Source of the DNA: a virus
Lineage: Duplodnaviria; Heunggongvirae; Uroviricota; Caudoviricetes
Reading direction: 5' to 3' (one strand)
IMG/VR virus record: IMGVR_UViG_3300027917_003468
Span: 1-64,000 of that record
Length of the DNA stretch: 64,000 nt
Positions 3,121 to 29,720 of this stretch are shown piece after piece. Within the stretch, counting starts at the first letter, position 1. Each line of letters opens with the position of its first letter. Made by a program: the position numbers and the translations under genes. A model generated the notes under the pieces. It was not told the DNA's origin. It saw nothing but the letters and a program-made list of their open reading frames with translations, and ran no database searches.

Positions 3121-3951
3121 ATGACTCATTTTCAGTTATCAGCAAAACTAAATCACATACAATCCAGATACACTTACAACGCCCAAGCTTTTGACGAGCT
3201 AGATGGGGAGAGTGCATATTGGCTGGGGTTTATATATGCTGATGGGAACATGTACAACAATCGACTCACTATATGTTTACAGGCCAGGGATAGGTACGTA
3301 CTAGAACATTTTCGTTCGTTCATGCAAGCTGACATTTCCCTGCACTACCGGCCTCGCACAAATGCCTACGCCGTCAGTATCGGAAATCCGTATCTTGCTG
3401 CACGGTTGAAGATGTTAGGGGTAGTTCCAAGGAAGGCTAGAAAGATTCGTTATCCTGAGGTTATAAGTGAGTTAGGGTTAGATGGCGCTTTTATTCGGGG
3501 CTATTTTGATGGAGACGGATGGATTGCAATAGGTAAGCGTTCTACTCTAAGACTGGGGTTTGCATCGAACAGAGATTTCTTGGATGGGATTACAACAGTT
3601 ATAGAGGGGAAACTGGCGATAGTGAAACCCACATTCTTTGCAAACAAGCGTAAGCATCGAAATGGTTATTATGGTTCCATTAACTATTCAGGACGAGAGG
3701 ACATAAAAAAGATTGTGGATTTCATGTGTTCTGATATGGGATTCTTTATGGAACGGAAATTGGGGAAATTCTACAAGCTCTACATGCAGCTAGAAAACAA
3801 AAAAGGGAGACTAACAGGAAAAGAACGTAACGGTCGCCTTTACAAGAAATTCTATCTTCCTGAAGCACACCAGCAAGCCTATAGCCAGCTCCTTCTATTG
3901 AGCAGGGTACATGAGCCCCTTCCACCCTTTCCCTTTCAATCGGGGCACTAA
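3121..3951 (+). CDS. LAGLIDADG homing endonuclease (free-standing)
   Basis: Two LAGLIDADG-type motifs: WLGFIYADGN and IRGYFDGDGW. Start moved to the Met at 3121; the track start 2986 looks too far upstream. Confidence 0.75.
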   Translation: MTHFQLSAKLNHIQSRYTYNAQAFDELDGESAYWLGFIYADGNMYNNRLTICLQARDRYVLEHFRSFMQADISLHYRPRTNAYAVSIGNPYLAARLKMLGVVPRKARKIRYPEVISELGLDGAFIRGYFDGDGWIAIGKRSTLRLGFASNRDFLDGITTVIEGKLAIVKPTFFANKRKHRNGYYGSINYSGREDIKKIVDFMCSDMGFFMERKLGKFYKLYMQLENKKGRLTGKERNGRLYKKFYLPEAHQQAYSQLLLLSRVHEPLPPFPFQSGH

Positions 3952-4326
3952 ATGAGAATTAGTTATCAGGGCAAAGAGATGCGGTTGTCAGACTGGGCAA
4001 GGGAGACTGGCACAGGGACAAAAACGATCATGTACAGGATCAAAGCTGGATGGAGTGTGGGGGAGGCATTAGGATTTGTTGAGCGAGAAAAGAAGGGGCC
4101 GCAGGATTACGTGAAGGCCAAACGGTTAACTTACAATGGTCAAACTGCTACCTACAAAGAATGGAGCGAACTGACTGGACTGCCTATTACCACCATCAAT
4201 TCCAGAGTGCTTGCAAACTGGCCGGAGGAAGCAGTACTGAATACCCCTCAAGGAACCCGACTGGAAGATTACCTGCAAGCTAGACGTGTTCGGGGGCTGT
4301 GGCGATTCTTGAAGTTCATTCTTTAG
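3952..4326 (+). CDS. tandem ~35-aa repeat DNA-binding-like protein (homing-endonuclease-associated HTH module?)
   Basis: ATG immediately after the homing-endonuclease stop codon; two repeats of a ~35-aa W..TG....I..R...W pattern. Confidence 0.45.
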   Translation: MRISYQGKEMRLSDWARETGTGTKTIMYRIKAGWSVGEALGFVEREKKGPQDYVKAKRLTYNGQTATYKEWSELTGLPITTINSRVLANWPEEAVLNTPQGTRLEDYLQARRVRGLWRFLKFIL

Positions 4327-4390
4327 TTTGTATATGCAGGAAGGGACAGCCAAGAAAATTTTTGGAAATAAAATCACTACTTCATTTTAC

Positions 4391-4420
4391 TTGACAACCC
4401 CTTACTCTACATAATATAAT
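4391..4420 (+). promoter_or_regulatory. sigma70-like promoter TTGACA ... TAATATAAT
   Basis: TTGACA 4391-4396; -10 candidates at 4412-4420. Confidence 0.4.
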
Positions 4421-4553
4421 CATCTAAATACCCATCAAATAGAGCAGCCGGTAAAATAATCGGTAATATTTGGCTACTTACCGGCAATTGGGGGCACTTA
4501 TCGGTAATATCTGGCAGTTTAATAAGCAATAGGCAAGCAATAAGGAGGAGCGT

Positions 4554-5294
4554 ATGGAGCAAGCTAATACCGCCTTTGCAAGGGATTCTGGCGCTGTAGC
4601 TTTCGGAATGGAAGTTTACGAGGCCTTGAGATCGTATGCAATGGCTAGGAGAGAGTGGCCAAAGACATTACGAAAGCATTTAATAGAGATAATGGCATTT
4701 AGGATTTTAAGGGACCAGACCACAGACCAGAGAGAGCGAAACAGGTATACCGGTTATATCACTTATCGTTGGAATTTCTGGAATAACCAAGCAAAGAACA
4801 GGCGATATTACGAGAATACCCGAGAATGGCAACGAGCGAAGGCCAAGGTACATCTGGAGGAAAACTGGGAGGAGATAAATCACAGGAAGCGGAAAAATAA
4901 TCGTAGGAGGACAGCAGAGAACAGGAAATTGGCAGAGCAAGGAGATTGGCGAGGGATAGTACAAAGGATGGTTACGTCGGTTCGGTCCAGGTCCAAGAAG
5001 AAGAATGCTTGGGATGAGCCATTTGACATAACCGATGAATGGATACTAACAGAGATGGAGCGTAGTGAATATAGGTGTCCAGATGACTGGCTGATACCGA
5101 GCATTGACCGTATAGATTCTACAAGAGGGTATACACAAGAGAACTGTCAGATTACATGTTTGCTATATAACTATTTGAAGAGGGAAATGAATGACGTAAT
5201 AGCAAGGAGGATGATGGCTGATTTTTTAGATATGGCTTGCTTTTATTGGCCGCAGAAGAAGATAGCAATGGCACGGGAGCAGACGGCAGCGTAA
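4554..5294 (+). CDS. basic protein with degenerate HNH-like motif (IDRID...ENCQ)
   Basis: Strong RBS TAAGGAGGAG; C-terminal IDRIDSTRGYTQENCQ resembles the HNH DHID..N..NL motif with His changed to Arg. Confidence 0.45.
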   Translation: MEQANTAFARDSGAVAFGMEVYEALRSYAMARREWPKTLRKHLIEIMAFRILRDQTTDQRERNRYTGYITYRWNFWNNQAKNRRYYENTREWQRAKAKVHLEENWEEINHRKRKNNRRRTAENRKLAEQGDWRGIVQRMVTSVRSRSKKKNAWDEPFDITDEWILTEMERSEYRCPDDWLIPSIDRIDSTRGYTQENCQITCLLYNYLKREMNDVIARRMMADFLDMACFYWPQKKIAMAREQTAA

Positions 5295-5469
5295 ACTTGG
5301 GGGCAAGGGCAATAACCGGCCAGATCTTACGGCTTAATAGGAAAGGGACAAGCTAACAGGAAAGATATTGCTGATAAAAACGCTTACTGCAGTGGATAGA
5401 GGGCACTGTAAACTTGTGTATTCTCAAACTTACAATGCCCCTGATCCTTTGCTGGTTGCTCGTTTAAGT

Positions 5470-6500
5470 GGTATGGATTTCTTCTTCCCTCTGGTTCATT
5501 TTGGCGAGCTGGCGGTCTAACTCTTCATGATTCACTTCTACACATTGGGGGTCTTAGCATGGATGATTCACTTTATGCCATTGGGTTCCTTTTACTTTGT
5601 GATTCGCTTTAGTCATATGGGCCTCTAAACTATGCTGGCTCACTCTAGGACTTTGGGCTCCTATGTGGGGATGATTCACTTAACAACAATGGATTTCTTT
5701 GGCTGGGTGGTTCACTTCTTTTTCAAGGGTTTCTTAAGAGTCTTGGCTCGCTTCGCTTATCTGGGTTTCTTTAAATTATTGGCTCGCTTTTGGTATATGG
5801 GTTTCTTATGACCGGTGATTCACTTAATCGCCATGGGTTTCTTATGAAAGGTGATTCACTAAACGATAATGGTTGCCTTTATCTGGGTGGTTCACTTCTT
5901 CTCTCAATGGGGTTCTTTCTTGTCATGATTCACTAATGCTCTTTGGATTTCTTTGAGTGGGTGATTCATTTCGGAAAGTTGGGTTTCTTAGAGATTGTGA
6001 TTCACTAACCAACCCTGGGCTTCTTTGATGTATTGATTCATTTCAATATCTTAGGTTTCTTAGGACCATTGATTCACTTTATGCCATTAAGAACCTATGG
6101 GTTCCTTTTACTTTGTGATTCACTTAATCATTTTGGGTTCCTTTGTAGCATTGATTTAAACACTTGATTCACTTTGCTCAATTGGATTCCTTGGAGTTCA
6201 TGATTCATTTCGGCAGCTTGGGTTCCTGCGTCCTAATGGTTTATTTGGGGACTCTGGGGTTTTTTGCGTCTATGGTTCACTTTACGGTCATGGAGTTCTG
6301 TCTGTCAATGATTCACTTGATCTTCCTGGGTTTCTTGGTTCTTGTGATTCACTTTGCGCCTCTAGGTTTCTTGCTTCTGATGGTTCACTTGCTCAAATTG
6401 GGCGTCTTTGATTTTGTGATTCACTTAATGATCATGGGTTCCTTTGAGTTTGTGGCTCATTTAAGGAGCTTGGTTGTCTTGAAAGTTATGATTATTCCTT
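5470..6500. repeat. non-coding tandem array, ~28 copies of a 36-bp unit (alternating 18-bp half-units TGATTCACTT / TGGGTTTCTT)
   Basis: Seen directly; each conserved block is followed by 7-8 variable nt; no long ORF except a repeat-driven 114-aa frame. Confidence 0.8.
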
Positions 6501-6507
6501 GCAAATA

Positions 6508-6542
6508 AAAGAGGGGGATCTAATATTCCCCCCTCACCGGTC
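6508..6542 (-). terminator. hairpin GAGGGGG..CCCCCTC followed by T-rich run on minus strand
   Basis: Immediately downstream of minus gene 6544..7497. Confidence 0.5.
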
Positions 6543-6543
6543 T

Positions 6544-7497
6544 CTAATGCAACAATTTCATACCCTCATATACCCATCCTCGTTCTTCGGGCATAATCAT
6601 TCTATGAGCTCCTCCTAAAACTGCCACTGGATATACAGGATCGGTAGGCAGTCCTGATAGTGTTCTTCCTACGTACCAGTAATCGGCCAGGAAGTGTTTG
6701 GCAATCTCCCGGCATGCAGCATTATGGCGATGACCTTTGCTGGCATCTTTCCACATGACTTGCTTGTATCCCCCTTTGACTCTGGTGTGGGTAATACGCT
6801 CTGAGTCGATATACTTGGCTTTTACTTTTTCCTCAAGATAAGCATAAGGCCCTATCGGATCTTTGTTCTTGGCACGAATCTGAGACATGGCCATATTATA
6901 AAGCGCTGTTCTCAGGTTTCGGTTGCCGCCTCCTTTCTCTCCTCTTTTGTAGCGTTGGTAGGCAGGTTTGTCGTAGCCAGCATAAGCCCAAAGACTGGAG
7001 GCGTGATCGGCCTTTTCCAGATCGAGATATACCGTGCAATAAGCTACCGTAATGGGACCGATGTAGGGAACGCCCAAAGCAGAGGTAATAAGCGGGTTGT
7101 TCTCGCTCATCACCAGAATATGCTCTGAGACTTGCTGGGAGAGTTTATTCAGCCTATTTCGGTGAGGTTCCAGGTGTGCTTCGTAGTAGGCCAAGGTTTC
7201 GGGGTTTAAGTGATCGGTTCGGCGTTTTTTGAAGGCATCGATCCTGTTTTCAAGGGAGACCACAAGTTTCAGGATTTGATTACGGTCGTCTACAAGGCTC
7301 TTCAGGTGATCCAGCTCTTCGGTACGGTCTCGCCAGCTATCGTGATGTTTCAGATGCTCAACCGGTTCCATATATACAACATTTTCTTCTGAGTAAGTTC
7401 CTCCTTTCGATCCAGGTACTACACGGTGTTTGTCTCGACCTGCCTCCGACCCCTCTTCTAGTTCTTCTACTACTTTTTCATCTTCTAGTTTTGTCAT
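6544..7497 (-). CDS. IS110-family transposase C-terminal (Transposase_20-like) domain protein without recognisable DEDD N-domain
   Basis: GVPYIGPITVAY...AYAGYDKPAYQRYKRGEKGGGNRNLRTALYNMAMSQIR matches the IS110 C-domain pattern; N-terminus is acidic/coiled-coil. Confidence 0.5.
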   Translation of the reverse strand: MTKLEDEKVVEELEEGSEAGRDKHRVVPGSKGGTYSEENVVYMEPVEHLKHHDSWRDRTEELDHLKSLVDDRNQILKLVVSLENRIDAFKKRRTDHLNPETLAYYEAHLEPHRNRLNKLSQQVSEHILVMSENNPLITSALGVPYIGPITVAYCTVYLDLEKADHASSLWAYAGYDKPAYQRYKRGEKGGGNRNLRTALYNMAMSQIRAKNKDPIGPYAYLEEKVKAKYIDSERITHTRVKGGYKQVMWKDASKGHRHNAACREIAKHFLADYWYVGRTLSGLPTDPVYPVAVLGGAHRMIMPEERGWVYEGMKLLH

Positions 7498-7568
7498 TTC
7501 TCAGCTCCTTTATAGTGGTTGGCTTATACTATAAAGATGCATGAGAATGGCGTTTTTATCATCTCACC

Positions 7569-8036
7569 TCAAAAAAAATTGAAATTTTTTATATCCTTGA
7601 CAATATCCTGCCAGAATCTCTCTCGTAGCCACTTATCCATTACGGTGATAAGGTGTTGGTAGCTTTCGGTAGGCAGGGATACTTCATATTTTGCTGCTCG
7701 AACAATATCATCCCTCGTTCCTTTGATTTGGTCGGTTATAAGCCATTGAGCAGAGTCAAATAGCTTTCGGTTATGGATGATCTCGAACTTGAATTGCGGG
7801 TTTTCACTATCAGCCCAGAGACGGAAGAGATAGGGATAGGGACGGATACGTGGATGTTTGTAATCTTCGTATGCCCAGAGAACACGCCAGTACTCGATTA
7901 CGTCAGGGTTATATTCCGGTTCTACCCAATTAGTGTCTTCGTAATAGCGTGTGGTTTGGTCCTGGGTTTTAGGTATTGGTATTACAGGGATCAAGGCGGC
8001 TGCAGGTAGAGCTCGTAAGAATTCACGTCTTTTCAT
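7569..8036 (-). CDS. secreted protein with Tat-like signal (MKRREFLRALPAAALIP)
   Basis: Internal Met gives an RREFL twin-arginine-like signal peptide; the longer track ORF (to 8189) would overlap the upstream gene extensively. Confidence 0.4.
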   Translation of the reverse strand: MKRREFLRALPAAALIPVIPIPKTQDQTTRYYEDTNWVEPEYNPDVIEYWRVLWAYEDYKHPRIRPYPYLFRLWADSENPQFKFEIIHNRKLFDSAQWLITDQIKGTRDDIVRAAKYEVSLPTESYQHLITVMDKWLRERFWQDIVKDIKNFNFF

Positions 8037-9231
8037 CTTGGGACTCCTTTGTGGTTTCGGGTTTCGTTCTTCTAGGGTTGTCAGGGATTCTAAAGTTAGG
8101 GCCGGTCCAGCTTGATATACCACTCTTACGGGCAGAGTGGGCGTATCGGTAAGTATGTCGGTGACGTCCAAGGATTCGTGCTTGGGCATTTAGGTCTGCT
8201 TGTAATCTTCGGTCAGTCCTCATAAGATATCTAGTGCTTTTCTCCAGTAAGATTAATCCCTTGTCCAGACCCCTTACCACTTTTGCCTGTTCTGTCACAT
8301 ACTCATGCAGGTACTCTCTACTGGCTGTTAGCTGCCGTATTGTCTTCTCTATGCTGCTGGTCTTGTAAGTTTGCTCTCGTAACTCCCGGCCTAACCGTTT
8401 CACCTCCTTTTCTAGGGCGGCTACTTGCTCTTTCATTTGTATGTCCTCCATTTCCGGCGGGACTATGAAGATCTCGCCATCAGGTCTATCCACTTCTGCC
8501 CGTTCTCTTAAATACGCCCTTTTCAGCTTCTCCAGTCCTTCCCGTTCGATCTGCCGTACCCGTTCCTTTGTTATGTCCATCTTCTGAGCAAGGCATTCGA
8601 GGGATATAGGATCGTCTTCTAACCCATCTAAGCCAAATCGATTCCTGAGGATGTACTGGTATCGATAATCCAAGCCTCCTAATGCCATTTTGAGGTAGTA
8701 CTTGTCTTCTTCTTTTAGTAAGAGCTCTTCAGGGCTCTCGGGTAAGGTATGGACATTGGCAAAAGCAAGTGCCTCGGATTTGGATACTTCGAGCTCGTAA
8801 TAGTTCTGCTTGGGGCTTCGGAACTCCTCAGGGAATAGATCTTCAGGTAACACGCCTAATGCCTCGGCCAGAAGACCTGCCGATTTGATCCAGTACAGGC
8901 CTTCGTAGCCGATGACAGGCTTATTCTTGTGGCCTCTGTGCTTGGCGCTTTTGGTGATCAGATCTTTCTTGAAGTTGAGTAAGCCCCCTACGGTTGAAGC
9001 GTCGATACCGGTTCTCCTGGCAAGTTCGCTCTGGTTGATGTTGCCCCACTTGTTCTTGACCAAGGTCCAGATGCGGTTGTTCTGTAACCTGACCTTTACC
9101 AGGAGATCTTTGGAAATTGTACTGTACTGATCATAAATGAACGGGACAGGTAGATCGTCCATAGCCCTTCTTTTCCTTACACCCTCAAGCTGTAGGTTGT
9201 GGTTGTATGGGCTATCCTTTCTTACTGTCAA
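8023..9231 (-). CDS. sigma-70 region-4-containing transcription regulator (N-terminal HTH + sigma region 4 + coiled coil)
   Basis: ILRNRFGLDGLEDDPISLECLAQKMDITKERVRQIEREGLEKLKRA is a typical region-4 HTH. Confidence 0.6.
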   Translation of the reverse strand: MTVRKDSPYNHNLQLEGVRKRRAMDDLPVPFIYDQYSTISKDLLVKVRLQNNRIWTLVKNKWGNINQSELARRTGIDASTVGGLLNFKKDLITKSAKHRGHKNKPVIGYEGLYWIKSAGLLAEALGVLPEDLFPEEFRSPKQNYYELEVSKSEALAFANVHTLPESPEELLLKEEDKYYLKMALGGLDYRYQYILRNRFGLDGLEDDPISLECLAQKMDITKERVRQIEREGLEKLKRAYLRERAEVDRPDGEIFIVPPEMEDIQMKEQVAALEKEVKRLGRELREQTYKTSSIEKTIRQLTASREYLHEYVTEQAKVVRGLDKGLILLEKSTRYLMRTDRRLQADLNAQARILGRHRHTYRYAHSARKSGISSWTGPNFRIPDNPRRTKPETTKESQDEKT

Positions 9232-9637
9232 ATATATACCACAAAATTTTAAAACTTGTGGGATTGGAGGTACATACTCATTTGTTGACCCTCTTTATAC
9301 CACGAGAATTGCACCTTGTCAATATCTTTATTAAAAAATTTTATAGGCATATTCTAAATGGATGTTTTATACCATAAAACACTTTTGAGTAAATGGCTTC
9401 TTATTTTTTTGTGCGATTGCGTCATCCAGCTGTTCCTTAGCTCAACGCCACACATGATCAAATACTGTCTCAAAATCATCAAGCGGGTAGGTTTCTTGAA
9501 GGTTAAACTCATCTCCGTTTGTCTTTACCTGAATGCGCAGCTCGAAAGTGGATGGCCTTTCGAAGTATCTTACCACTCTAATTTTCACTTCATTCAGAAT
9601 CATCTACATCCTCCTCAAGTCTTGGTAGCATAGCATC

Positions 9638-10264
9638 CTAACAGTTCCCATCATGAACTTCGTAAATATAGCCACATACTGAACATCTCACTGTATAGTC
9701 CCATTCGATTGCGTTCATACAATCCATACTATAAACAGGGTAAGAATTATAATTATAGACGTTGATATTTCTGAAGATGGTAGTTCGGGGGCATCCGCAT
9801 TTGACCAGGTATGCTTCCTCCCAGACACGTTTGAGTTTGGAATGTTTATCATACCACTCCCTGTCTCTTGGAAGCATATAACTGACTCGGTCGGGTGCTG
9901 GTTTCATCCAGTCCCGTTTGAACTCATAAGCTACCCGTCTGGCTTCTGACAGGCATCGGTTGATCCACCAGTCTTCGTCTCCGTCTACTACAAACCGGTC
10001 GATATCATTACAGTGGCATCCTTTATGGTGTAGGGTAACTTCCTCAACACCGCCTGGATCATCTTCTAGTGGATCAGAAGCGCCACAATTAGGGCACCCG
10101 TTGTCAGGATAGTTACATACACCACATACAATACAGTCAAAAGAATGCCAATCATCTTTCTCATGTACAGTCAAGGCTTCACAACTACCGCACCAGCGAT
10201 AGCCTTCGGGTACTTGAACCACACCCTCTTTCACAGTTAATTCGGGATAGCTTTTTTTGTTCAT
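9638..10264 (-). CDS. cysteine-rich hypothetical protein
   Basis: Many CxxC pairs; no recognised family. Confidence 0.5.
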   Translation of the reverse strand: MNKKSYPELTVKEGVVQVPEGYRWCGSCEALTVHEKDDWHSFDCIVCGVCNYPDNGCPNCGASDPLEDDPGGVEEVTLHHKGCHCNDIDRFVVDGDEDWWINRCLSEARRVAYEFKRDWMKPAPDRVSYMLPRDREWYDKHSKLKRVWEEAYLVKCGCPRTTIFRNINVYNYNSYPVYSMDCMNAIEWDYTVRCSVCGYIYEVHDGNC

Positions 10265-10311
10265 CTCTCGAATTTGTTTATTCTATAGATTTTGCGGTCG
10301 GCGTCACAAAA

Positions 10312-11178
10312 TTACTTCACACCATCTAGACTGATAAGAAATCCGCCATTAGCTCCTGCCAGTCTCGGTACTGCTCCGTCCCATTTATCAATCATTCGAT
10401 ATTGTACAAGAGTATCTGTCAAAGATGCAGCTACAATTTTATTGGCTTTGGCCTGGGCTTCAGCTTCAATCAATGTAGATTCAGCATTTCCTCTCGCTTC
10501 GGCGATTTTCTTTTGAGCCTCGGCCTTTTTTTCTTTAATCTCATTTTCTCTTTGCTGAGCTCTTTGGACCGCCTCTATTTTTGCGTTTAGAGCTGCTACA
10601 ACACTGCCTGGAAGACGAAGACTGCCGATAAAATAAAGTCTTTCCAAGTCAATACCGATAGGAGCAACCTGTTCTCTAATCAGATCTTCGGCAGCACTTA
10701 ATATTTCCATTTTACCTGGACCGTAGACAAACTCAACTTCTTTTTGGCTACATATAGTATTAAGAGCATCACGAGCCATATTTCGTAGGTAAACGTCTGT
10801 AATCTCGTCAACACCACGGCGGTACTTCTGAAAGACCGTGTCTACTTTATCGGGCTCGATCTTGTAGGATATTCCAACATCTGCTCCGATAGTTAGTCCT
10901 TCCTTAGTCTGCATGGTAATGGATTCATCATCTGTTGAACCTTCCCGTGAATCGGCGGTCCAGACATAATTCTGCGTGAAGGTAGGAAACTGATAGACTG
11001 AATAAGTAATACCTAACCAGACATACCCTACACCAACTTCTTCAGTCTCCACTCCTTTCTCGCTCCCGAATTTGTTTACTTTCACTCCTCGATATCCCGG
11101 TTGAATCCGAACACATCCCAGAGCTGTCACTGCTATGATAAGTGACAGCATTAGCAAGATCTTTAAGTGCTTTGTCAT
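10312..11178 (-). CDS. SPFH/band-7 (HflC/stomatin-like) lipoprotein
   Basis: Signal peptide plus lipobox ALGC; SPFH-like core; C-terminal coiled coil. Confidence 0.65.
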   Translation of the reverse strand: MTKHLKILLMLSLIIAVTALGCVRIQPGYRGVKVNKFGSEKGVETEEVGVGYVWLGITYSVYQFPTFTQNYVWTADSREGSTDDESITMQTKEGLTIGADVGISYKIEPDKVDTVFQKYRRGVDEITDVYLRNMARDALNTICSQKEVEFVYGPGKMEILSAAEDLIREQVAPIGIDLERLYFIGSLRLPGSVVAALNAKIEAVQRAQQRENEIKEKKAEAQKKIAEARGNAESTLIEAEAQAKANKIVAASLTDTLVQYRMIDKWDGAVPRLAGANGGFLISLDGVK

Positions 11179-11347
11179 AATTGAACCTCCTTAAGATACG
11201 GGTTAAAAGGAATATGGTAAAGGCAGCGACGCCGACCGCTCCAATAGCAGCTGCGGGGGTGTTCTTCATTGAAATTAACCACGGACCTAAGAACCCATAA
11301 ACTAAAACACATGCAATAAGCCAAAAAAGGAAGGTTAAGATCTTCAT
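11042..11347 (-). CDS. small two-TM membrane protein (NfeD-like partner?)
   Basis: Two hydrophobic helices; overlaps the SPFH gene by ~137 nt so the extent is uncertain. Confidence 0.3.
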   Translation of the reverse strand: MKILTFLFWLIACVLVYGFLGPWLISMKNTPAAAIGAVGVAAFTIFLLTRILRRFNYDKALKDLANAVTYHSSDSSGMCSDSTGISRSESKQIRERERSGD

Positions 11348-11730
11348 ATTACTCTCCTTTTCTTTTCCAACTCCTTACGAAAATCTTCAAACATCTTCTT
11401 GTGGAGGGTCTGTAGGCAAAGGTCGATGTTTCTCATAGCCTCAAGTTTATCTACTACGAGGCTAGGTGCATTAAGGCAATAGTTCACCTCATATCGCTTT
11501 TCATCCGTTGTTTTCGACCACGCCAGTACATGAAGGCCATGGTCTATTACAGCTTCTGCCTTAGCCATAACACTGAAGCGAACCTCATGATATGGAATGG
11601 ATAACTCTATCTCAGAGGGTTCCCAGTATGGGGGGACAAAGCTAGGTTTGTTATATCTCTCTGAAAACTCCAATCGCTTTCGTAGCCTATCGTTTTCCTC
11701 TTCTAGAAACATTTCATATACTGTTTTCAT
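11344..11730 (-). CDS. hypothetical protein
   Basis: ORF in operon context. Confidence 0.45.
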   Translation of the reverse strand: MKTVYEMFLEEENDRLRKRLEFSERYNKPSFVPPYWEPSEIELSIPYHEVRFSVMAKAEAVIDHGLHVLAWSKTTDEKRYEVNYCLNAPSLVVDKLEAMRNIDLCLQTLHKKMFEDFRKELEKKRRVI

Positions 11731-12179
11731 AATTTGCGGTATCCTATTTTGACCAGCAATTTACACAGATATCAGTTTGTACAATCTCTGGATGCTGTTC
11801 TCTTAAGATATGTTTCTCCCCATCTGCATCTTCATATATTTTTACTACTATGAGTAACATTAACATTATTCTTTAATGTTAATGTTACTCATACAGATAT
11901 TAAAGGCAAAGCACCAATTCCATTTTGGATCAGGTAAACATAGAATACTTTCAGGTGTCACTAGTTTAAAGTAGCACCCAACAATAACCCAAGAAAATGG
12001 CGGTAAGTAAGTTTTCTCTGTGACGATAATACGTTCTTTATAGAGATAACCATGCCTCTTGAGTTTTTGGATCCAAGGCTGTTCTGTCCATGAAAGTGGT
12101 ATATGTATTGTTGCGGCGGTTGGTAGAATAATTGCACTTTTTAGAAACTCACGTCTGGTTACCACACCTTCTCCCCCAT

Positions 12180-14205: not shown

Positions 14206-14658
14206 CTATAATTCTATATCCTTGGAATTGTCAACTTTTAATTTGGAGGATTTGGGCTTATTTGTGGGTTTAGACTGCTTTATTACAGGTGCTTCAGAAT
14301 CGATTGTATCTTCAATACTTAGCTCAATTAGTTGTATTTCGTCATTCCATTTTACAGTATGGAGAGTTCTTTCATTAGGAGTAAGCCCATAATGTTTCAA
14401 GAAGGCTCGTCCATGTACAGTACCATATCTCGTATTGGATCTCTTTTGGATACTATAGGTATATTGGGCTTTTCTGTTTACTGGCATAATACCTACTTTT
14501 TTACTTTCATCGTCATAATATAACTCAACGTACTGATGATCTTTGATAAACTTTTCTAAACATTGCTCGTTAAGATTAAACATTCCATTTTTTGTAATTG
14601 ATATCGCTGGAAATGGAAGAGCTCTGTAATTACTTGTCTTGAATTGTTTGAATGCCAT
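14206..14658 (-). CDS. hypothetical protein (start at internal Met MAFKQF)
   Basis: Trimmed to avoid a large overlap with the sigma-54 activator gene. Confidence 0.4.
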   Translation of the reverse strand: MAFKQFKTSNYRALPFPAISITKNGMFNLNEQCLEKFIKDHQYVELYYDDESKKVGIMPVNRKAQYTYSIQKRSNTRYGTVHGRAFLKHYGLTPNERTLHTVKWNDEIQLIELSIEDTIDSEAPVIKQSKPTNKPKSSKLKVDNSKDIEL

Positions 14659-15664
14659 GACCAATCTCCTTTCCCGTCCGTTCTCGGTACCGTTGAAGTT
14701 TGTAATGCAATTTACTTTTACTAATACCCAGTTCACATGCTGCAGCCTTTTGTACAAATCCAGTCTTTTTTAGACTACGTAAGATCCATTCCAATTCTAT
14801 ATCCTCTAGTGCCTCTGTCATCTTGTTAGTGTAGCCGTTCGTACTTAGATGTTCTACAGTATGTGTTATGAGCTTCTTGGTGTCCGTAGGGATGGTGCTT
14901 GCAAGAACAGCATCTTTCTTGTGGAATAATATATGATCTTCCTTAATCTGATCATCAAAACAGAATAACACTGCTTGTTCCAGTACGCTTTTCAGTTCTC
15001 GTATATTTCCAGGCCATAGGTAGTGTTGTAATTTTTCTATAGCTGCTTTAGAGAACGATTTTATTGTACGCTGTTTATTGTATCTCTCTCTGAATATGGT
15101 TACATAGTGTTTTACTAATAGTGGGATATCTTCTAATCTATCTCTTAATGTCGGAACCTGTATTGTTGTGGTATTCAAACGGTAAAAGAGATCATCTCTA
15201 AATTTGTTCTGGTTAATCAACGTAATCATATCTTTGTTTGATAACGAAATAAATCGAGTATTGATATGAAAGGATTCGGTCCCACCTACCATTTCAAATT
15301 GCTGATTCTCCACTACTCTTAAAATCTTGGCTTGTACTGCCCAGCTCATATTCGAAATTTCATCCAGTACCAATGTTCCCTGGTCGGCAATGTGTAGCTT
15401 TCCTAATTTTCTTGTACTGGCATCTGTGAAGGCTCCTTTTACATGTCCAAACAATTCGGATTCTAATAGAGAGTCTTGTATAGCAGCGCAGTTTACTTTG
15501 ACTAGTTTATTTCTTATCCTTGCACTTTGTCTGTGCAGCTCATCTGCCACTAATTCTTTTCCTACTCCTGTTTCTCCTAGAACCAGTACAGGAATGGAGG
15601 AAGGAGCAACAAGCTTTATTTTTTCTTTTACTTCTTTGATTGCTTCACTTTTTCCTACTATCAC
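14630..15664 (-). CDS. sigma-54-dependent transcriptional activator (bEBP AAA+ domain + C-terminal Fis-type HTH; no receiver domain)
   Basis: Walker A GETGVGKE; ESELFGHVKGAFTDA (GAFTGA-like); Walker B LVLDE; C-terminal HTH AAACELGISKSKLHYKL. Confidence 0.8.
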   Translation of the reverse strand: MIVGKSEAIKEVKEKIKLVAPSSIPVLVLGETGVGKELVADELHRQSARIRNKLVKVNCAAIQDSLLESELFGHVKGAFTDASTRKLGKLHIADQGTLVLDEISNMSWAVQAKILRVVENQQFEMVGGTESFHINTRFISLSNKDMITLINQNKFRDDLFYRLNTTTIQVPTLRDRLEDIPLLVKHYVTIFRERYNKQRTIKSFSKAAIEKLQHYLWPGNIRELKSVLEQAVLFCFDDQIKEDHILFHKKDAVLASTIPTDTKKLITHTVEHLSTNGYTNKMTEALEDIELEWILRSLKKTGFVQKAAACELGISKSKLHYKLQRYRERTGKEIGHGIQTIQDK

Positions 15665-15765
15665 AAACTGTTCCGTCCTTGTTCACCTCATTTTGTGGAT
15701 CTGCCGATAACTCCATCCGCATATACAGAGCGTATCCCAACAATGCTCACAATCAGCCATTCCCA

Positions 15766-16140
15766 TTATTTATCCTCTCCTGCCTGTTCCCAGATACAAT
15801 GTTGGCAACGAGTCATAAACCAGCCGTTCTTATCATGGAGGGTTGCCCAGGTACTTCCACATCTCTCACATATGTAACTAGAGAGCCATTCGACAAAATG
15901 AATAGTTTTATGTGCAGCCTCATTTCCTCCCTCATAATAAAACCGTAGAGTCCCGAATTTTTCTTTTACCTGGATGGCTTTGACCTGTGGCATATTCTGT
16001 TGGTCGGTTAGATGCTGTAAGTACTTTGAGAGCCGGTCAATTAACCAGCTCCATCCGTCCAAATGCTCGAAGATGAAGTCTTTGTCGTAAATCTTTGAAT
16101 ACTTCCAGATAAGTTCTTTACGTAGTTCGTGACTCAGCAT
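15766..16140 (-). CDS. hypothetical Zn-binding protein
   Basis: CERCG...CQHC. Confidence 0.4.
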   Translation of the reverse strand: MLSHELRKELIWKYSKIYDKDFIFEHLDGWSWLIDRLSKYLQHLTDQQNMPQVKAIQVKEKFGTLRFYYEGGNEAAHKTIHFVEWLSSYICERCGSTWATLHDKNGWFMTRCQHCIWEQAGEDK

Positions 16141-16158
16141 GTTGTCTCCTATCTACGT

Positions 16159-16368
16159 CTACCAGTCCGTATTTTTTCTATATTTAAGAATTTGCTCTAC
16201 TGCTGTACTTATTACTTGAGAGAATTCATGGATAGAGTAGGCTATTGCAAGTAACCCACGAGAAATCATTCTACCGTCACTAGTAAGACCACGGTCGATT
16301 TTTTCTTCTATCACTTGTAACTTTGATTCGGTAAACCCCCGAATATATGATCTCTCCTCCAAATCCAT
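16159..16368 (-). CDS. hypothetical small protein
   Basis: ORF. Confidence 0.3.
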   Translation of the reverse strand: MDLEERSYIRGFTESKLQVIEEKIDRGLTSDGRMISRGLLAIAYSIHEFSQVISTAVEQILKYRKNTDW

Positions 16369-16371
16369 TTA

Positions 16372-17343
16372 CTATGTCTCCGCTTTTTTAATTTGTTTTG
16401 CGGGAACTCCAGCCACAACTACATTAGGGGGGACATCATCAATTACAACGGCTCCCATACCCACTACACAATCCTTTCCGAGTCTTAGGCCGTTAAGGAT
16501 GGAAGCGCTGGGACCAACCCATACACAGTCTCCCATCTCAACACTTCCTCCAATCATGGCAAGAGCTACAATAGCGCAGCTTTTGCCAATCTTACAGTTA
16601 TGCGCTATATGCACCAAGTTATCGATTTTACTTCCTTCCCCTATTATAGTATCTCCTAGAGCTCCTCTGTCCACACAGGTATTTGCTTGTATCTCAACAC
16701 GATCCTCAATGATTACTCGACCTAGTTGTGGAAATTTTATAAGGTTGCCAGATGAAGTTCGCCACATTCCAAATCCGTCTGCTCCAATAATCGTACCAGC
16801 GTGGATAGTAACATCTTTACCTATTACTGTTTTAGGATGAATATGTGTATGTCCATGGAGACAACAATGGCTACCTACTTCACAGTTATTACCTACATAT
16901 GCAAATGGGCCTATGTAAGAGCTCGGATCGATTTTTGCTGAGGGCTCTATGATAGCTGAAGGATGGATCCCACCTAAGAATATGGAGCTGAAAAGTTTTG
17001 CTACCTCAATAAAGGCAAGTCTTGGGTTATCAACAAAAATTAATGTACTTGAAGTTATCCCACTGCAAACACGTTGGAGACTTGTTGGGCATATAATAGC
17101 TGATGCACGGCTGGTTTTAATTTTCTCCTGGCTTTGTATCATTTGATCTTGAGTGAATTCGGGGATCTCATCAATTATATCTAAGGGTCTCCGCTTTCGA
17201 TTACTAATACCTGGGAAATCGCAAAATGTAATTGTCCCTGTATCAGCCTCATGAATCGGCGCAACACGGTGGATTTCTATATCGAGATTGCCCCAGGTTG
17301 TATAAGGACAGCTAATTCTCTGGAGGATTACTTGTAGATTCAT
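16372..17343 (-). CDS. left-handed beta-helix (hexapeptide-repeat) sugar N-acyltransferase, LpxD/PglD-like
   Basis: Long run of [LIV]GxxxxI hexapeptides; C-terminal [10 protein letters not shown]. Confidence 0.7.
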
Positions 17344-24488: not shown

Positions 24489-24845
24489 TCATCTGACAAC
24501 ATCCCCCTTTTCTTGTGCAGCTTGATTTTCCTCCTCCTTCATTAACTTCGGAAGGTTAATTAGATTGGTTATTTGCTCGTCCTGCAATCTAATAATAGTA
24601 CAGAGTTTGTATACAAGTTCTGGAGATTGAGCGAGGAATTCCAACAGAGTGGCACTAGTAATTTTTCTAACTTGTTGTAAGGTCAATGGTGGGTTGATTT
24701 GTTCGACGGCCTCTTCTATAACTTCAATATCTTTTATGGTAATCAGTTCGGGTCTTTTATTGATGAAGGTTCGCAGATTAGTTATAGGCATTTTTATTAT
24801 TCCCTGTATGTCTTTTGGCTGGCGTGAGTGGATTCGAACCACCAT
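24489..24845 (-). CDS. hypothetical protein
   Basis: ORF; the track end overlaps tRNA-Asn slightly. Confidence 0.35.
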   Translation of the reverse strand: MVVRIHSRQPKDIQGIIKMPITNLRTFINKRPELITIKDIEVIEEAVEQINPPLTLQQVRKITSATLLEFLAQSPELVYKLCTIIRLQDEQITNLINLPKLMKEEENQAAQEKGDVVR

Positions 24846-24892
24846 ATTCCTGATTAACAGTCAGGCTCCATTGCCGAGTCGGACACACGCCA
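24816..24892 (-). tRNA. tRNA-Asn (anticodon GTT), CCA encoded
   Basis: Hand-folded cloverleaf: acceptor TGGCGTG/CACGCCA, T-loop GGTTCGAATCC, anticodon loop CTGTTAA. Confidence 0.75.
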
Positions 24893-24971
24893 GGATTGGG
24901 GCATATCTCTAATCTGGACTGCGATCCGACTATTCTCGTGTTGATGAATACAGAATGTCATCTTTTCCTCC

Positions 24972-25045
24972 CTTTAACTGGCTTGGGGAAAAGGACTCGA
25001 ACCCTTATTTCTGGAGCCAAATTCCAGCGTCCTGCCGTTGGACGA
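24972..25045 (-). tRNA. tRNA-Gln (TTG), CCA encoded
   Basis: Acceptor TTGGGGA/TCCCCAA, T-loop GGTTCGAGTCC, anticodon loop ATTTGGC. Confidence 0.7.
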
Positions 25046-25210
25046 TCCCCAAACTCTTTCGCTGGTTAATTTATTCATGGTCTGACGGTACCATAGCTCT
25101 GGATTCTTGTCAATACCTTTTAGAAAAAAAATTGAATCCCAAGAAAATATTTGATTCGGTTACAGAGAGTGTTATAATAAAATAACTAAATAATATAACA
25201 GGGGAATTCC

Positions 25211-25837
25211 ATGGATAATAAACCTTTCCTAACTGTTGTAACTCGTTGCTTTAAAAGGCCTTTGTTGTTACGAGAAAATGTAAAATCTCTTAAATCACAA
25301 ACGGACCCAGATTATGAACAGATTTTTATCATAGATCGTAAAGGTAAAGGTCTTGCTGCTGCTGATCGAGTCTTGGATGAGTACAAGGATCTCAATACGG
25401 GCCAGTACATTCTTGTATTAGATGACGATGACATGGTTCTAGAATCCGAGTTTATTGCTACTGTCAAGGAGGTGGCAAAAGATAAAGATCCAGATGTAAT
25501 TATATGGAGAGGTCGGTTTGGTAAAGGATATCAAACCGACCTTCCACCTAAAGATACTAATTGGGGAAAGACTATTGTAAAAGCTAAAATAGGCAGTTTC
25601 AACTATGCCATAAAAAATGAACTTTATAAAAAACATATTCATGTCTGCAAAACCGGAGTGGCTGGTGACTTTGATTTTCTAAAAAAAGTTCTTAATCAAT
25701 GTCCTCCTCAAAAGGTTGTGTGGCTTGATACTACCTTTGTTGGAATACAGGTAAAGAGTAAAGGTAGAGCCGTTCAAAGTGTACGTAAGATTGGTAACAA
25801 AAGAGTTCTCAGTCGCCATAAGAATCGCTGGCGGTAA
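25211..25837 (+). CDS. GT-A-like glycosyltransferase-family protein; paralog of 53621..54238
   Basis: FLTVVTRCFKRP...DPDYEQIFIIDRKGKGL matches FLTIITRAYKKP...DADYEHIILEDKIGKGL; isolated + strand gene with extended -10 TGTTATAAT upstream. Confidence 0.55.
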   Translation: MDNKPFLTVVTRCFKRPLLLRENVKSLKSQTDPDYEQIFIIDRKGKGLAAADRVLDEYKDLNTGQYILVLDDDDMVLESEFIATVKEVAKDKDPDVIIWRGRFGKGYQTDLPPKDTNWGKTIVKAKIGSFNYAIKNELYKKHIHVCKTGVAGDFDFLKKVLNQCPPQKVVWLDTTFVGIQVKSKGRAVQSVRKIGNKRVLSRHKNRWR

Positions 25838-25839
25838 TA

Positions 25840-26235
25840 TTACTTGATCTCAATCTTCTTTACGTATTTCTCTTTCTTTGGAATCGTGATTAGTAGGATA
25901 CCGTTCTTTAGCTCTCCCTCAATCTGATCTACTATAATATTATCTGGTAGGGAATAGGTTCTAGAGAAGGCTCCGCTAAAATCCCATTCGTCGCTCTTTT
26001 CTTTCTTCTCGCCCCGAATACTTATAATACCATCAGAAATTTCTACTGTAACTTCATCCTTCTCAAATCCAACCGCTTCTGCACGAATAAGATACTCTTT
26101 GTCGGTTTCTTTCGTTTTCAGTTCAAAAGATGCATTCCCAGCCCCTCCCCAGGTAGTATCCATATCTGACCAGTAGGGAAAAAGAGACTGGTTGAAATCA
26201 AACAATGATTTTAATGGATTGTATTTTACTATCAT
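25840..26235 (-). CDS. small heat-shock protein (Hsp20/alpha-crystallin domain)
   Basis: Alpha-crystallin pattern: AEAVGFEKDEVTVEI..ISIRGEK...F.R...LP...V....GILLITIPKK. Confidence 0.65.
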   Translation of the reverse strand: MIVKYNPLKSLFDFNQSLFPYWSDMDTTWGGAGNASFELKTKETDKEYLIRAEAVGFEKDEVTVEISDGIISIRGEKKEKSDEWDFSGAFSRTYSLPDNIIVDQIEGELKNGILLITIPKKEKYVKKIEIK

Positions 26236-26438
26236 GGTTTTATCCCCCTATCTTAGTATGTTTGTATGCCGCAGTAAAGGACAGCACCTAGATAACCAGT
26301 GACGAGTAGAGTTGCTATTGTAAGCCCAACTTCAGCTATTTTTTCTTTGGTACATTTACTCATCTTTAATTCCTCCCGGTTTGTTTTTACTAGATATATT
26401 CCAGTATACCTAGTAAAATAATCATTAATTTAAACCGG

Positions 26439-26933
26439 TCAACCTTTTGTTTTGAGATATTCTAAAATTTTACACATCCGATTATATGTGCGCTCATGAA
26501 TATCTGTGTAACCTTTTCTTCCTTCGGAATTACCAGCTACATTGAGTACGTGAATTGAATTTTTTTCAATCCACATAGCTACCTTCTCAGTTTCCTTGTC
26601 ATCCTCTTTTTTTAGATCAATATCAAAATGGGGCTTGTTACAGTATTTTATTGCCTGTCTGGTACATCGTTCTCCAGCAGTATTAAATGTTACAGCAAAT
26701 CGTATAGTACCGTCAGATATGATTACATTTGCCCATGTACGTTGAGGATATCCCCCCCCTTTAAGTTCAGCAAGTCCAAATCTATTTTTCAATAGTTTCT
26801 TGTTCGGGCCATCTAGAGTCATCCAACCTTCAGGGGCAAATCCGCCAGTTTTGATCTTATATTTTTTAGCTGCAAATAAACCGGCCTGATCTGCTCCTGT
26901 TTGACCTCCAGATATAATCATTTCTAATGGCAT
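26439..26933 (-). CDS. SLOG-superfamily protein (putative molybdenum-cofactor-carrier-like, GGQTGAD motif)
   Basis: MIISGGQTGADQAGL N-terminal motif. Confidence 0.45.
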   Translation of the reverse strand: MPLEMIISGGQTGADQAGLFAAKKYKIKTGGFAPEGWMTLDGPNKKLLKNRFGLAELKGGGYPQRTWANVIISDGTIRFAVTFNTAGERCTRQAIKYCNKPHFDIDLKKEDDKETEKVAMWIEKNSIHVLNVAGNSEGRKGYTDIHERTYNRMCKILEYLKTKG

Positions 26934-26948
26934 CTTCTTACCTCTTGA

Positions 26949-27446
26949 TCATGTCTTTCTTTTCACCTTGTATACTCTTCTTTTCTTTACTATCGGTTCT
27001 TGTACTTTCTTCACAACAGGAGCAGATTTGAGAGCCCCCGCTTTCTTGAGTTTGACATACTCCTGATACTCCTGCCAAATTTTGTCTACTCGTATCTTCT
27101 TCTTTGTCTTACCGAAACTACTGATGGCCATCTTCTTTATATTTTTGAATTCTTTCTTTGCCACTTCAGAGCTATCTCCTATTCTCATGTCCTCCACCGA
27201 TTTACAAACATGATGGAACCCGAGAAAGTACATAGGACAGTAAGTACAGACAGCAGTAGTAGCTTTTGTTTGTTGATGTATATTCTGGCAGAGGGGACGT
27301 AATACTGTAGCCTGATCGATATACTGGAAGTTAAACGCCATCCAGATATCCAGAGTTCTGTCAATAGCTTTTAGTAGGTCCTCACGATCTACACCTTTGA
27401 AACCCATATGATTTCTCCTTATAGAAGTACTAATAACATAATACAA
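26949..27446 (-). CDS. hypothetical protein with Lys-rich tail
   Basis: ORF. Confidence 0.4.
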   Translation of the reverse strand: MYYVISTSIRRNHMGFKGVDREDLLKAIDRTLDIWMAFNFQYIDQATVLRPLCQNIHQQTKATTAVCTYCPMYFLGFHHVCKSVEDMRIGDSSEVAKKEFKNIKKMAISSFGKTKKKIRVDKIWQEYQEYVKLKKAGALKSAPVVKKVQEPIVKKRRVYKVKRKT

Positions 27447-27523
27447 ATAAGACCAAAAATTGTTGACAAAAGAATTAGGTCTTCGATTTCTCTGGGGTCC
27501 ATTTTATTGCCTTCCTGTATTAC

Positions 27524-27607
27524 GGAGGATAGAGGATTTGAACCCCTACTGGTGTTACCCAGACTTCCGATTTCGAGTCGGATACCTTACCATTCAGTCA
27601 ATCCTCC
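27524..27607 (-). tRNA. tRNA-Ser (CGA), long variable arm, no encoded CCA
   Basis: Acceptor GGAGGAT/ATCCTCC; anticodon arm TCCGA-CTCGAAA-TCGGA; long extra arm; T-loop GGTTCAAATCC. Confidence 0.7.
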
Positions 27608-27789
27608 AATTTTTTGAGAATGTTTTTATAATGCTCTAAAGCTTTTATAGTGTCCCAATAAGTATAAGTAGATAGAATATCCTCGCTTTTTGTAATTTCC
27701 CATATTTCATCGTCAACATCTCTTGGGTCCATAAATTCACTTCTGGGATAAAGTAAATAGGCTAAAGCTTTCATAACTGGATCAATCAT

Positions 27790-28188
27790 TTAATTCTCCT
27801 TATTTATCTCTTCTCGCATCCAGTTACTTAATGGGCAATCCTGTTTTAAGAGCTCTTCAAAATAACCTGGTGCGTGAGAGAGGTAGACACGAGTGTGTTT
27901 ATCATTTTGGATTAGCACACTTTTGAATGTGGGAGTCCAAACATGGCCACACCCAGAAGGTTCGGTTTCGAAGTCTTTCTCCTTACAGATCCTTTCCTTC
28001 TCTACCCATTTCTTTGCACTCATGTAATATTCATATAACTCATTGTAAGTTGGCTCTCTACCATTTAGAGACCAATCATAATCACAACAGATATCATCGA
28101 TCTCTTTGCCGCACTTTGGACAATCAATATAACCCATCATAATAGTCAATCCTCCACAATATTTTTTGCTGCTTCTTCCCCAGCCCAT
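27790..28188 (-). CDS. hypothetical Zn-binding protein
   Basis: CPKCG..CC. Confidence 0.4.
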   Translation of the reverse strand: MGWGRSSKKYCGGLTIMMGYIDCPKCGKEIDDICCDYDWSLNGREPTYNELYEYYMSAKKWVEKERICKEKDFETEPSGCGHVWTPTFKSVLIQNDKHTRVYLSHAPGYFEELLKQDCPLSNWMREEINKEN

Positions 28189-28344
28189 AGTATTAGGTCG
28201 TCTGAAAGCTGCGGGTTTTCTTTTGAGATTATCTGTGCATAGGTTATCATGGCTTTTCTTGAGGCTACTGCGTATATGTCAGTACCCTTTGGCTTGAGAA
28301 CAAAATACTTCATTACTAGACCTTCCATTTCTTCCTCCTTCCAT

Positions 28345-28422
28345 TGGCAGGTGGGACAGGATTCGAACCCGCACAGTCTCTGGATTTGGAGTCCAGTGCC
28401 TTACCAGTTTGGCTACCCACCT
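28345..28422 (-). tRNA. tRNA-Trp (CCA), CCA encoded
   Basis: T-loop GGTTCGAATCC; anticodon loop CTCCAAA; acceptor pairs. Confidence 0.7.
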
Positions 28423-28598
28423 ATGTTATCTTTCTTATACCTGTGAAGTCCATTTCTTGCTCCACAGATAGGACATTTTTTCCATTCGTTCACTAACATC
28501 ATATCACATTTGTCGCACCAAAACTTCCCCTTTTTTGGTGTGAATCTTTCTTCTCTATTTGATTGTTTATACTTGTAGAGCTCTAATACTGTTGCCAA
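28413..28598 (-). CDS. small Zn-ribbon protein
   Basis: CDKCD...CPICG; 3' end overlaps tRNA-Trp by ~10 nt. Confidence 0.35.
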   Translation of the reverse strand: MATVLELYKYKQSNREERFTPKKGKFWCDKCDMMLVNEWKKCPICGARNGLHRYKKDNIGG

Positions 28599-28618
28599 TG
28601 TTTACCTCCTGCATGTCA

Positions 28619-29023: not shown

Positions 29024-29079
29024 GGTTCTCTCCTTCTATCCTATTACTGATACTTGACAACAACACTAGTGCTTTCCTC

Positions 29080-29110
29080 TTGACTTTCGATTTTTCTTGC
29101 GTTATTATAT
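29080..29110 (+). promoter_or_regulatory. sigma70-like promoter TTGACT-17-TATTAT(ATAAT)
   Basis: Upstream of + gene 29192. Confidence 0.5.
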
Positions 29111-29191
29111 AATACATAGCTCGTAATGTGCAACCTCAAAACAGAGGCTGGTTAAACAAAAAAGGCCAGTGTAGACAAAGGAGAAGGCTCA

Positions 29192-29656: not shown

Positions 29657-29685
29657 CCTGTTCTATTTATAAGAGCTGGAGATAG

Positions 29686-29720
29686 GCGTGGGGCATTGTG
29701 TTCCACGCCTATTTTTTGAT
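29686..29720 (+). terminator. intrinsic terminator ATAGGCGTGG..CCACGCCTAT + T6
   Basis: 10-bp stem plus TTTTTTG. Confidence 0.65.

Follow-up and report, generated by a model that had tools for sequence, protein, structure and literature searches.

A TIGR-TasH locus with a 28-unit dual-repeat array in a tRNA-carrying phage of the Caudoviricetes

The gene at positions 6544-7497 of the virus record IMGVR_UViG_3300027917_003468 (Caudoviricetes) from IMG/VR encodes TasH, the HNH-bearing effector of TIGR-Tas systems. Positions 1 to 64,000 of this record were analysed and are referred to here as the window. Together with the adjacent array of 36-bp units, the gene very probably constitutes a phage-borne TIGR-TasH system, i.e. 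an RNA-guided, CRISPR-like DNA cutter. The family membership of the protein, its catalytic and processing residues, the anatomy and strand of the array and the linkage of gene and array in related loci were all observed here. An initial annotation, made from the letters of the sequence, had regarded the gene as an orphan, domesticated fragment of an IS110-type transposase. The relationship of the protein to IS110 is real, but distant, and TasH is a better assignment than Transposase_20.

Family assignment of the gene product

The gene is a single open reading frame on the minus strand without interruption, for which no upstream extension is possible. The product of 317 amino acids contains the motif block IGPITVAY...WAYAGY...GGGNRNLRTALYNMA. 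In the Pfam search, residues 143-211 matched Transposase_20 (PF02371) with an E value of 6.6e-5 and 23.7 bits. This score lies above the gathering score of 21.3, so that the match is real but marginal, and the homology of the C-terminal domain to IS110/IS1111 transposases that had been proposed initially is confirmed. The catalytic DEDD domain of these enzymes is indeed missing, as DEDD_Tnp_IS110 (PF01548) was not found in the protein at E values of up to 10.

Comparison with NCBIfam models assigned the protein to a different family. The model NF052498 (TIGR_Tas_endo, "TIGR-Tas system RNA-guided endonuclease") matched residues 66-276 with an E value of 3.7e-27 and 95.7 bits, covering positions 2-213 of the 215 model positions. 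The IS110 model NF033542 yielded 31.7 bits (E 8e-8), compared to a cut-off of 140, and only its positions 135-310 were aligned, to residues 56-225. A sequence search of the PDB returned TasH of Salicola phage CGphi29 (SpTasH) as the top match (E 5.3e-71, residues 22-312), represented by eight entries including 9W02-9W04, 9VZX and 21KL. The next-ranked match, TasR (9MTY, E 4e-13), was confined to the Nop region. With BLASTP, an identity of 41% to the Salicola protein was obtained over ~290 residues (22-310, E 1e-80). The closest homologue is P0002 with 84% identity, located on a contig in ERR688356.

The structural comparison is in line with this result. An AlphaFold2 model of the protein, calculated with 36 homologues as input, has a mean predicted local distance difference test (pLDDT) value of 90.5. 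When this model was searched with Foldseek, TasH (9W04) ranked first with a template modelling (TM) score of 0.80-0.82 over 293 aligned columns. It was followed by TasR (9MTY) with ~0.52 and then by the bridge recombinases IS621 and ISCro4 with ~0.46, for which the E values were about 1e-5-1e-6. Structure prediction, which had been suggested as a check of the IS110 assignment, did recover a likeness to IS110-type enzymes, but TasH is much closer. The view of the gene as an orphan IS110 fragment was therefore abandoned.

The pattern of Pfam matches can be understood from the family itself. SpTasH gives an equally marginal Transposase_20 match and no Pfam HNH match; the same combination in our protein is thus a typical family signature. 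Transposase_20 was matched by 19 of 22 members of the TasH family. Published work on TIGR-Tas describes the Nop-like domain of Tas proteins as related to the RNA-binding domain of IS110 (PMC12045711), and the Transposase_20 match reflects shared domain ancestry rather than membership in a transposase family. Automated annotation gives this locus no label, as its precomputed field for Pfam contains no entry and its score on the NCBIfam model lies just below the cut-off; loci of this kind are therefore easily misread as IS110 fragments.

Domains and conserved residues

The first 20 residues of the protein are acidic. Residues 22-52 (DKHRVVPGSKGGTYSEENVVYMEPVEHLKHH) align with the HNH domain of SpTasH and contain the core residues H24, N39, H48 and H52. 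H48 is aligned to H54 of SpTasH, the residue that is replaced in the catalytically dead mutant H54A (bioRxiv 10.64898/2026.08.11.744272). In alignments of 22 and 36 sequences, G33 was found to be invariant, while G32, N39, H48 and H52 are invariant or conserved to at least 90%. A direct Pfam HNH match was obtained for only three of the 22 family members, among them P0045 and P0094 with PF01844; neither the protein studied here nor SpTasH was matched in this search. The core is modelled as two strands (residues 22-25 and 40-43) and a helix (45-51) with pLDDT values of ~88-91. Alignment and model together indicate an HNH nuclease domain with its catalytic residues present, and nuclease activity is predicted.

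Two long helices follow (residues 60-90 and 99-131, pLDDT 95-98). Residues 60-131 align both to the coiled coil of SpTasH and to the IS110 model from its position 135 onward. This region is the dimerisation element shared by Tas and IS110 proteins, and our protein is predicted from the alignments and the model to form a dimer by means of it. The N-terminus had at first been described as an acidic coiled coil unrelated to the remainder. It does begin with an acidic stretch and is helical between residues 60 and 131, but neither the HNH core nor the coiled coil is unrelated, since both find their counterparts in Tas proteins.

The C-terminal Nop-like domain contains Y289, which is invariant in both alignments, and H298, which is located within the conserved family loop LGGxHRTIMPEERGW. 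The position of the loop histidine shifts by two residues across the TasH family. In SpTasH, Y289 and H296 are the residues of metal-independent processing of the tigRNA precursor (PMC13421893; bioRxiv 10.64898/2026.09.09.750476). In those members of the family that have been characterised, guide RNA and not DNA is the ligand of the Transposase_20/Nop-like domain (PMC12045711, PMC13421893). For this reason, the expected ligand of TasH is the processed array transcript and not the repeat DNA TGATTCACTT, for which the initial annotation had envisaged a DNA-binding, repeat-binding protein. The sequence TGATTCACTT corresponds to the edge repeat described below, read as its reverse complement.

Anatomy of the array

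The array next to the gene is genuine, as had been noted from the start. It was first recognised as direct-repeat families with a spacing of 36 nt, spanning ~5470-6500. Read on the minus strand, it starts 46 nt past the stop codon of tasH and consists of 28 units, each composed of the edge repeat AAGTGAATCA, the 8-nt spacer A, the loop repeat AAGAAACCCA and the 8-nt spacer B. Unit-by-unit parsing gave a length of precisely 36 nt for 25 of the 28 units and of 10 nt for both repeats. Positions 1-3 and 8-10 of the repeats are strongly conserved. The spacers are variable: 27 of the 28 A spacers are distinct, and the same holds true for the B spacers. No second array of this type was found within the window. 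TIGR arrays are defined by two alternating repeats of 8-12 nt giving rise to 36-nt tigRNAs, with 16 variable nucleotides in the Salicola system (PMC12045711). The organisation observed here fits this definition of a dual-repeat array.

None of the other loci examined has an array of this length; their arrays comprise ~4-21 units. The totals given for TIGRFinder (65,635 tigRNAs in 4,126 arrays) correspond to ~16 tigRNAs per dual-repeat array, a value that is exceeded by the 28 units found here. Unit 11 (6080-6125, minus strand) shares both spacers (A, caaagtaa; B, atggcata) and the loop repeat with unit 25 (5574-5609), from which it is distinguished by ten additional nucleotides (taggttctta) inserted behind the loop repeat. 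The two units represent a duplication within the array, which may give a clue to the way in which TIGR arrays expand. At 5744-5798 (minus strand), bounding units 19-21, two consecutive edge repeats have the sequence AAGCGAGCCA, which is the Salicola type with C4/G7 and a typical edge of other TasH arrays. This suggests either recombination with another TIGR array or drift by compensatory change.

Gene and array in related loci

Scanning IMG/VR with an alignment of the TasH family returned 43 loci. A period-36 array was located directly downstream and/or upstream of the gene in all of them, and every repeat chain detected was on the strand of the gene. The linkage of gene and array, which had been noted for the single locus, extends to its relatives. 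The seven neighbouring proteins gave no tblastn match at any related TasH locus. Since the neighbours are not shared, the module consists of the gene and the array only.

Three other assemblies contain the same phage, namely an ENA contig of 78 kb and two assemblies from Logan. The source samples are ERZ27279932, SRR6207735 and SRR6207736. The arrays are identical except for a single-nucleotide polymorphism in two of the three, located at window positions 6428 and 6324 (L003 and L005), where the B spacers of units 2 and 5, respectively, are affected. No spacer turnover is visible from arrays that differ by single nucleotides, and two events are too few to interpret.

Most TasH homologues were found on contigs of only 1-3 kb. 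Probably, the repeat arrays break short-read assemblies, and array lengths in metagenomes are then likely to be underestimated. Among cultured phages, Microcystis phage Mvi-JY20 encodes a protein of 241 amino acids annotated as hypothetical (XAI95461.1; L002, 4950-5675), which lacks an HNH region and is scored with 193 bits by the model NF052498. Judged by its sequence, it looks like TasA. Within 5 kb on either side of this gene, a scan for periods of 32-41 found no dual-repeat array; stem-loop arrays were not looked for.

Strand and RNA-level evidence

Two features of the edge repeat point to RNA as the relevant molecule. Positions 8 and 3 form a U.G pair in 14 of the 28 units, and such pairing is possible only in RNA of the minus strand. 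Positions 4 and 7 covary over 24 distinct consensus pairs of the family, namely T/A in 12, C/G in 10 and T/T in two cases. Comparable covariation was reported for the edge repeats of TasR systems. Both observations indirectly support that the array may be transcribed and processed into guides, in analogy to the characterised systems.

Just past the last edge repeat, which is degenerate, a hairpin is formed by positions 5400-5441. On the minus strand, it has an uninterrupted stem of 17 bp with a folding energy of -31.5 kcal/mol (z -5.0), whereas the stem is interrupted on the plus strand. No T-run follows directly behind it. The hairpin is likely the 3' end structure of the array transcript.

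Proposed mechanism

Transcription, processing, assembly of a dimer with a tigRNA, targeting of both strands and cleavage are proposed by analogy with published work on the Salicola orthologue. As tasH and the array (from 6498 to 5456) have the same direction on the minus strand, they could be transcribed alike. Within every edge repeat, the Tyr/His loop of the Nop-like domain would cleave the array transcript, yielding tigRNAs of 36 nt that comprise half an edge repeat, spacer A, the loop repeat, spacer B and the second half edge. Two TasH molecules, joined as a dimer through the coiled coil, would then bind one tigRNA via the conserved repeat ends flanking the spacers. Pairing is expected between spacer A and one strand of the DNA and between spacer B and the opposite strand of the neighbouring 8 bp, resulting in recognition of 16 bp for which no protospacer-adjacent motif (PAM) should be needed. 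Each HNH domain would nick one strand, so that a staggered double-strand break would be formed. As an example, the tigRNA predicted for unit 5 and the matching duplex are given in Table 1. In the field, the system is at present guessed to serve in competing with other mobile elements or in manipulating the host.

Table 1 Features of the tasH locus and its surroundings. Positions refer to the window
Feature	Position	Strand	Remarks
tasH	6544-7497	minus	317 aa; HNH, coiled coil, Nop-like RNA-binding domain; TIGR-associated HNH nuclease (activity predicted)
HNH (beta-beta-alpha-metal) nuclease core	7333-7440	minus	residues ~20-55; aligned to SpTasH HNH
Coiled-coil dimerisation region (dimer predicted)	7105-7326	minus	residues ~58-131; two long helices
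Nop-like (Transposase_20-like) guide-RNA-binding domain	6568-7095	minus	residues ~135-310; includes Y289/H298 processing loop
GC-rich hairpin with T-run	6512-6533	minus	directly after tasH stop, 14 nt before array; terminator-like, possibly attenuator
Dual-repeat TIGR array	5456-6498	minus	28 units
17-bp hairpin	5400-5441	minus	just past last (degenerate) edge repeat
Predicted unit-5 tigRNA			AAUCA-CAAGAACC-AAGAAACCCA-GGAAGAUC-AAGUG
Duplex matched to unit-5 tigRNA			5'-CAAGAACC GATCTTCC-3'; contains CAAGAACCGATCTTCC
LAGLIDADG-like gene	3121-3951	plus	phrog_4645, E 2e-36
HNH endonuclease family gene	3952-4326	plus	phrog_3377
Endonuclease VII/HNH-like gene	4554-5294	plus	phrog_3322, E 1e-11
Gene for 402-aa protein	8023-9231	minus	Sigma-70 region 4 (E 8e-11) and helix-turn-helix
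tRNA cluster	24816-37515	minus	10 tRNAs: Asn, Gln, Ser (2), Trp, Arg (2), Ile (2), Met

Evaluation of the assignment and of alternative explanations

Several results weigh against the assignment as an active TIGR-TasH system. The score of 95.7 bits on NF052498 is slightly below the curated cut-off of 100, while SpTasH itself reaches 118.9 bits. Units 10, 11 and 16 of the array have irregular lengths of 49, 46 and 38 nt, and it is possible that they do not yield functional guides. The terminator scan of the minus strand detected a stem of seven pairs at 6512-6533 followed by CTTTTATTTG, and co-transcription of tasH and array would need read-through because of this terminator-like hairpin with its T-run. 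Its folding energy of -13.8 kcal/mol is not significant when compared to shuffled sequences, and a hairpin is present at the same position after the stop codon of the SpTasH gene.

The searches for targets belong to the same side. The 28 spacer pairs were compared to the window in the published geometry (spacer A followed by the reverse complement of spacer B), in the inverse geometry and in a control, with gaps of 0-2. No self-target with at most one mismatch was found in the window. Matches with two mismatches occurred at the level of mispaired spacers (5 vs 4.7 and 7 vs 5.3; P 0.51 and 0.26). When IMG/VR was scanned with guide 8 (TTAGGACG N0-2 CGGCAGCT), 16 matches in unrelated GC-rich contexts were obtained, some of which are copies of one gene or a tRNA-like sequence, and no other guide matched the loci found with guide 8. 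The number is at chance level, since a 16-mer is expected by chance in a collection of the size of IMG/VR. According to the literature, natural targets of TIGR-Tas systems are hard to identify.

A last point concerns the nuclease. The segment CxLxGxxLP, which precedes the HNH core in most relatives, is absent and an acidic stretch is found in its place, so that nuclease competence of TasH is not guaranteed. TasH might then be impaired by the truncated N-terminal segment and act as an RNA-guided DNA binder, transcriptional repressor or nickase within an otherwise complete TIGR-Tas system. We consider this improbable. Repression of transcription was reported for dead SpTasH (H54A) and for inactive TasR and TasA (bioRxiv 10.64898/2026.08.11.744272, 10.64898/2026.09.09.750476), but all four core HNH residues are present in our protein and the beta-beta-alpha core is modelled with high pLDDT values. 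The missing Pfam HNH match fits an impaired domain, yet SpTasH, an active nuclease, lacks this match as well. Furthermore, the segment is also missing in the family members P0002, P0012, P0108 and P0118, which retain the core motif.

Far less probable is a domesticated IS110 C-terminal module that binds double-stranded TGATTCACTT repeats as DNA, e.g. in the manner of a centromere-, iteron- or repeat-binding protein. The significant Pfam match, the weak NCBIfam IS110 match and the position of the gene beside the array are what speaks for it. The nearest solved structures are, in contrast, complexes of TasH with tigRNA, the score on the IS110 model is far below its cut-off and below the score on the TIGR-Tas model, and the domain in question binds guide RNA in TasH, TasR and IS110 (PMC12045711). 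The repeats show covariation and G.U pairs of the RNA type. A DNA-binding iteron array would have no use for 27 distinct spacer pairs, and conservation is seen in the HNH core and in the Tyr/His loop for RNA processing.

That the array is not a guide array at all, but a degenerate CRISPR, a coding repeat of 12 residues or plain satellite DNA, has next to no likelihood: its period is a multiple of 3 and a plus-strand open reading frame of 114 amino acids (6164-6508) contains a 12-residue repeat, but no frame is open throughout the array (two further overlapping plus-strand frames have 50 and 59 amino acids), alternating 10-nt repeats with 8-nt variable segments are not the structure of a CRISPR, the same architecture and orientation was found at every TasH homologue examined, and an Rfam scan of the window at gathering thresholds returned only tRNAs. 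The CRISPR, coding-repeat and iteron readings of the array were rejected on the basis of its anatomy.

The phage and the neighbouring genes

The phage genome has a size of ~78 kb or more. A DNA search of the region 5300-12000 against cultured phages yielded only a match of 113 bp to Stenotrophomonas phage Pokken. Three endonuclease-like genes on the plus strand (3121-5294, Table 1) run towards the distal array end, and the region looks like a hot spot of mobile nuclease genes. The gene for the 402-aa protein with Sigma-70 region 4 shares its strand with tasH and is located two genes upstream of it; no such conserved neighbour is present beside other tasH genes. The cluster of 10 tRNAs is typical of a large phage genome. 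Positions 155-2868 of L003, corresponding to ~14630-17343 of the window, code for an LpxD/hexapeptide-repeat-like protein, a PIG-L-like fragment and a sigma-54 activator of the AAA+ type with HTH_8. For a phage, auxiliary or regulatory genes of this type are unusual.

Significance of the locus

The locus adds a well-preserved and very long TasH array with 28 guides, found in a tRNA-carrying phage. The understanding of how TIGR-Tas systems work is unchanged by it. The remaining interest lies in the length of the array, the internal duplication of a unit, the mixed types of edge repeats and the HNH variant without N-terminal segment. Comparative work on array evolution could draw on the 27 different guides of the array, on its duplicated unit and on its mixed edge repeats. 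The guides could also serve to hunt for targets, given a metagenome of the host community. A tentative and rather doubtful idea is that the long array records growth of TIGR arrays by duplication within the array and recombination with foreign arrays, and not by acquisition as with Cas1/2; as a second possibility, the HNH variant may have an altered activity, e.g. as nickase or DNA binder.

Comparison with known systems

CRISPR-Cas systems resemble the locus in having a repeat-spacer array beside the effector gene and a transcript that is processed to unit guides. They differ from it in their architecture: the single repeat of ~25-36 nt with spacers of similar size, which is the criterion for CRISPR, is not what is found here. 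Instead, two 10-nt repeats alternate, the spacers are split into 8 + 8 nt intended for opposite strands, and neither a PAM nor Cas1/Cas2 is part of the system. The Nop5 and Nop56/58 proteins of box C/D small nucleolar ribonucleoproteins use the same Nop fold to read short conserved motifs that flank two guide segments (PMC12045711). These particles, in contrast, guide methylation of RNA via fibrillarin and L7Ae at K-turns; partners and motifs of this sort were neither looked for nor seen here.

Elements of the IS110/IS1111 type (IS621, PDB 8WT6/8WT9) share a homologous coiled coil and RNA-binding domain with TasH, and a bipartite guide RNA occurs in both. Here, an HNH nuclease is found instead of the DEDD/RuvC-like domain, together with no role as catalytic-serine recombinase. 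Furthermore, many short guides are arranged in an array instead of a single bridge RNA, and no transposon ends are evident. TasR (TaTasR of Thermoproteota, PDB 9MTY) and TasA have the Nop-like domain, the coiled coil and dual-repeat arrays that give 36-nt tigRNAs in common with our system, as well as recognition of both strands by tandem spacers. TasR is distinguished by an N-terminal RuvC domain and 9-nt spacers, and TasA by the lack of a nuclease.

The closest known system is SpTIGR-TasH of Salicola phage CGphi29 (Faure et al., Science 2025; cryo-electron microscopy structures 9W02-9W04, 9VZX and 21KL). Both proteins have the domain order HNH, coiled coil and Nop-like domain, the catalytic histidine (H54 in SpTasH, H48 here) and the processing tyrosine (Y289 in both). 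In both cases, tasH is followed on its own strand by a downstream array with 36-nt units and 8-nt spacers, and a hairpin is found between stop codon and array. The repeats of the Salicola system, AAGCGAGCCA (edge) and AAGACAACCA (loop), are very similar to AAGTGAATCA and AAGAAACCCA, differing from them at three and two of ten positions, respectively. This includes the covarying pair of the edge repeat, which is T4/A7 here and C4/G7 in Salicola phage. The array is about three times longer than that of SpTIGR (28 vs ~10 units). In the protein, the position of D30 of SpTasH is occupied by a histidine (H24), and a shorter acidic segment is present in place of the N-terminal segment of ~27 residues with HCEITG. 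The processing histidine is shifted by two residues further along the loop, as in the majority of family members. The two phages are unrelated, and the one studied here carries tRNAs. Taken together, the locus is a clear further example of TIGR-TasH, which has been known since 2025, and not a new kind of element.

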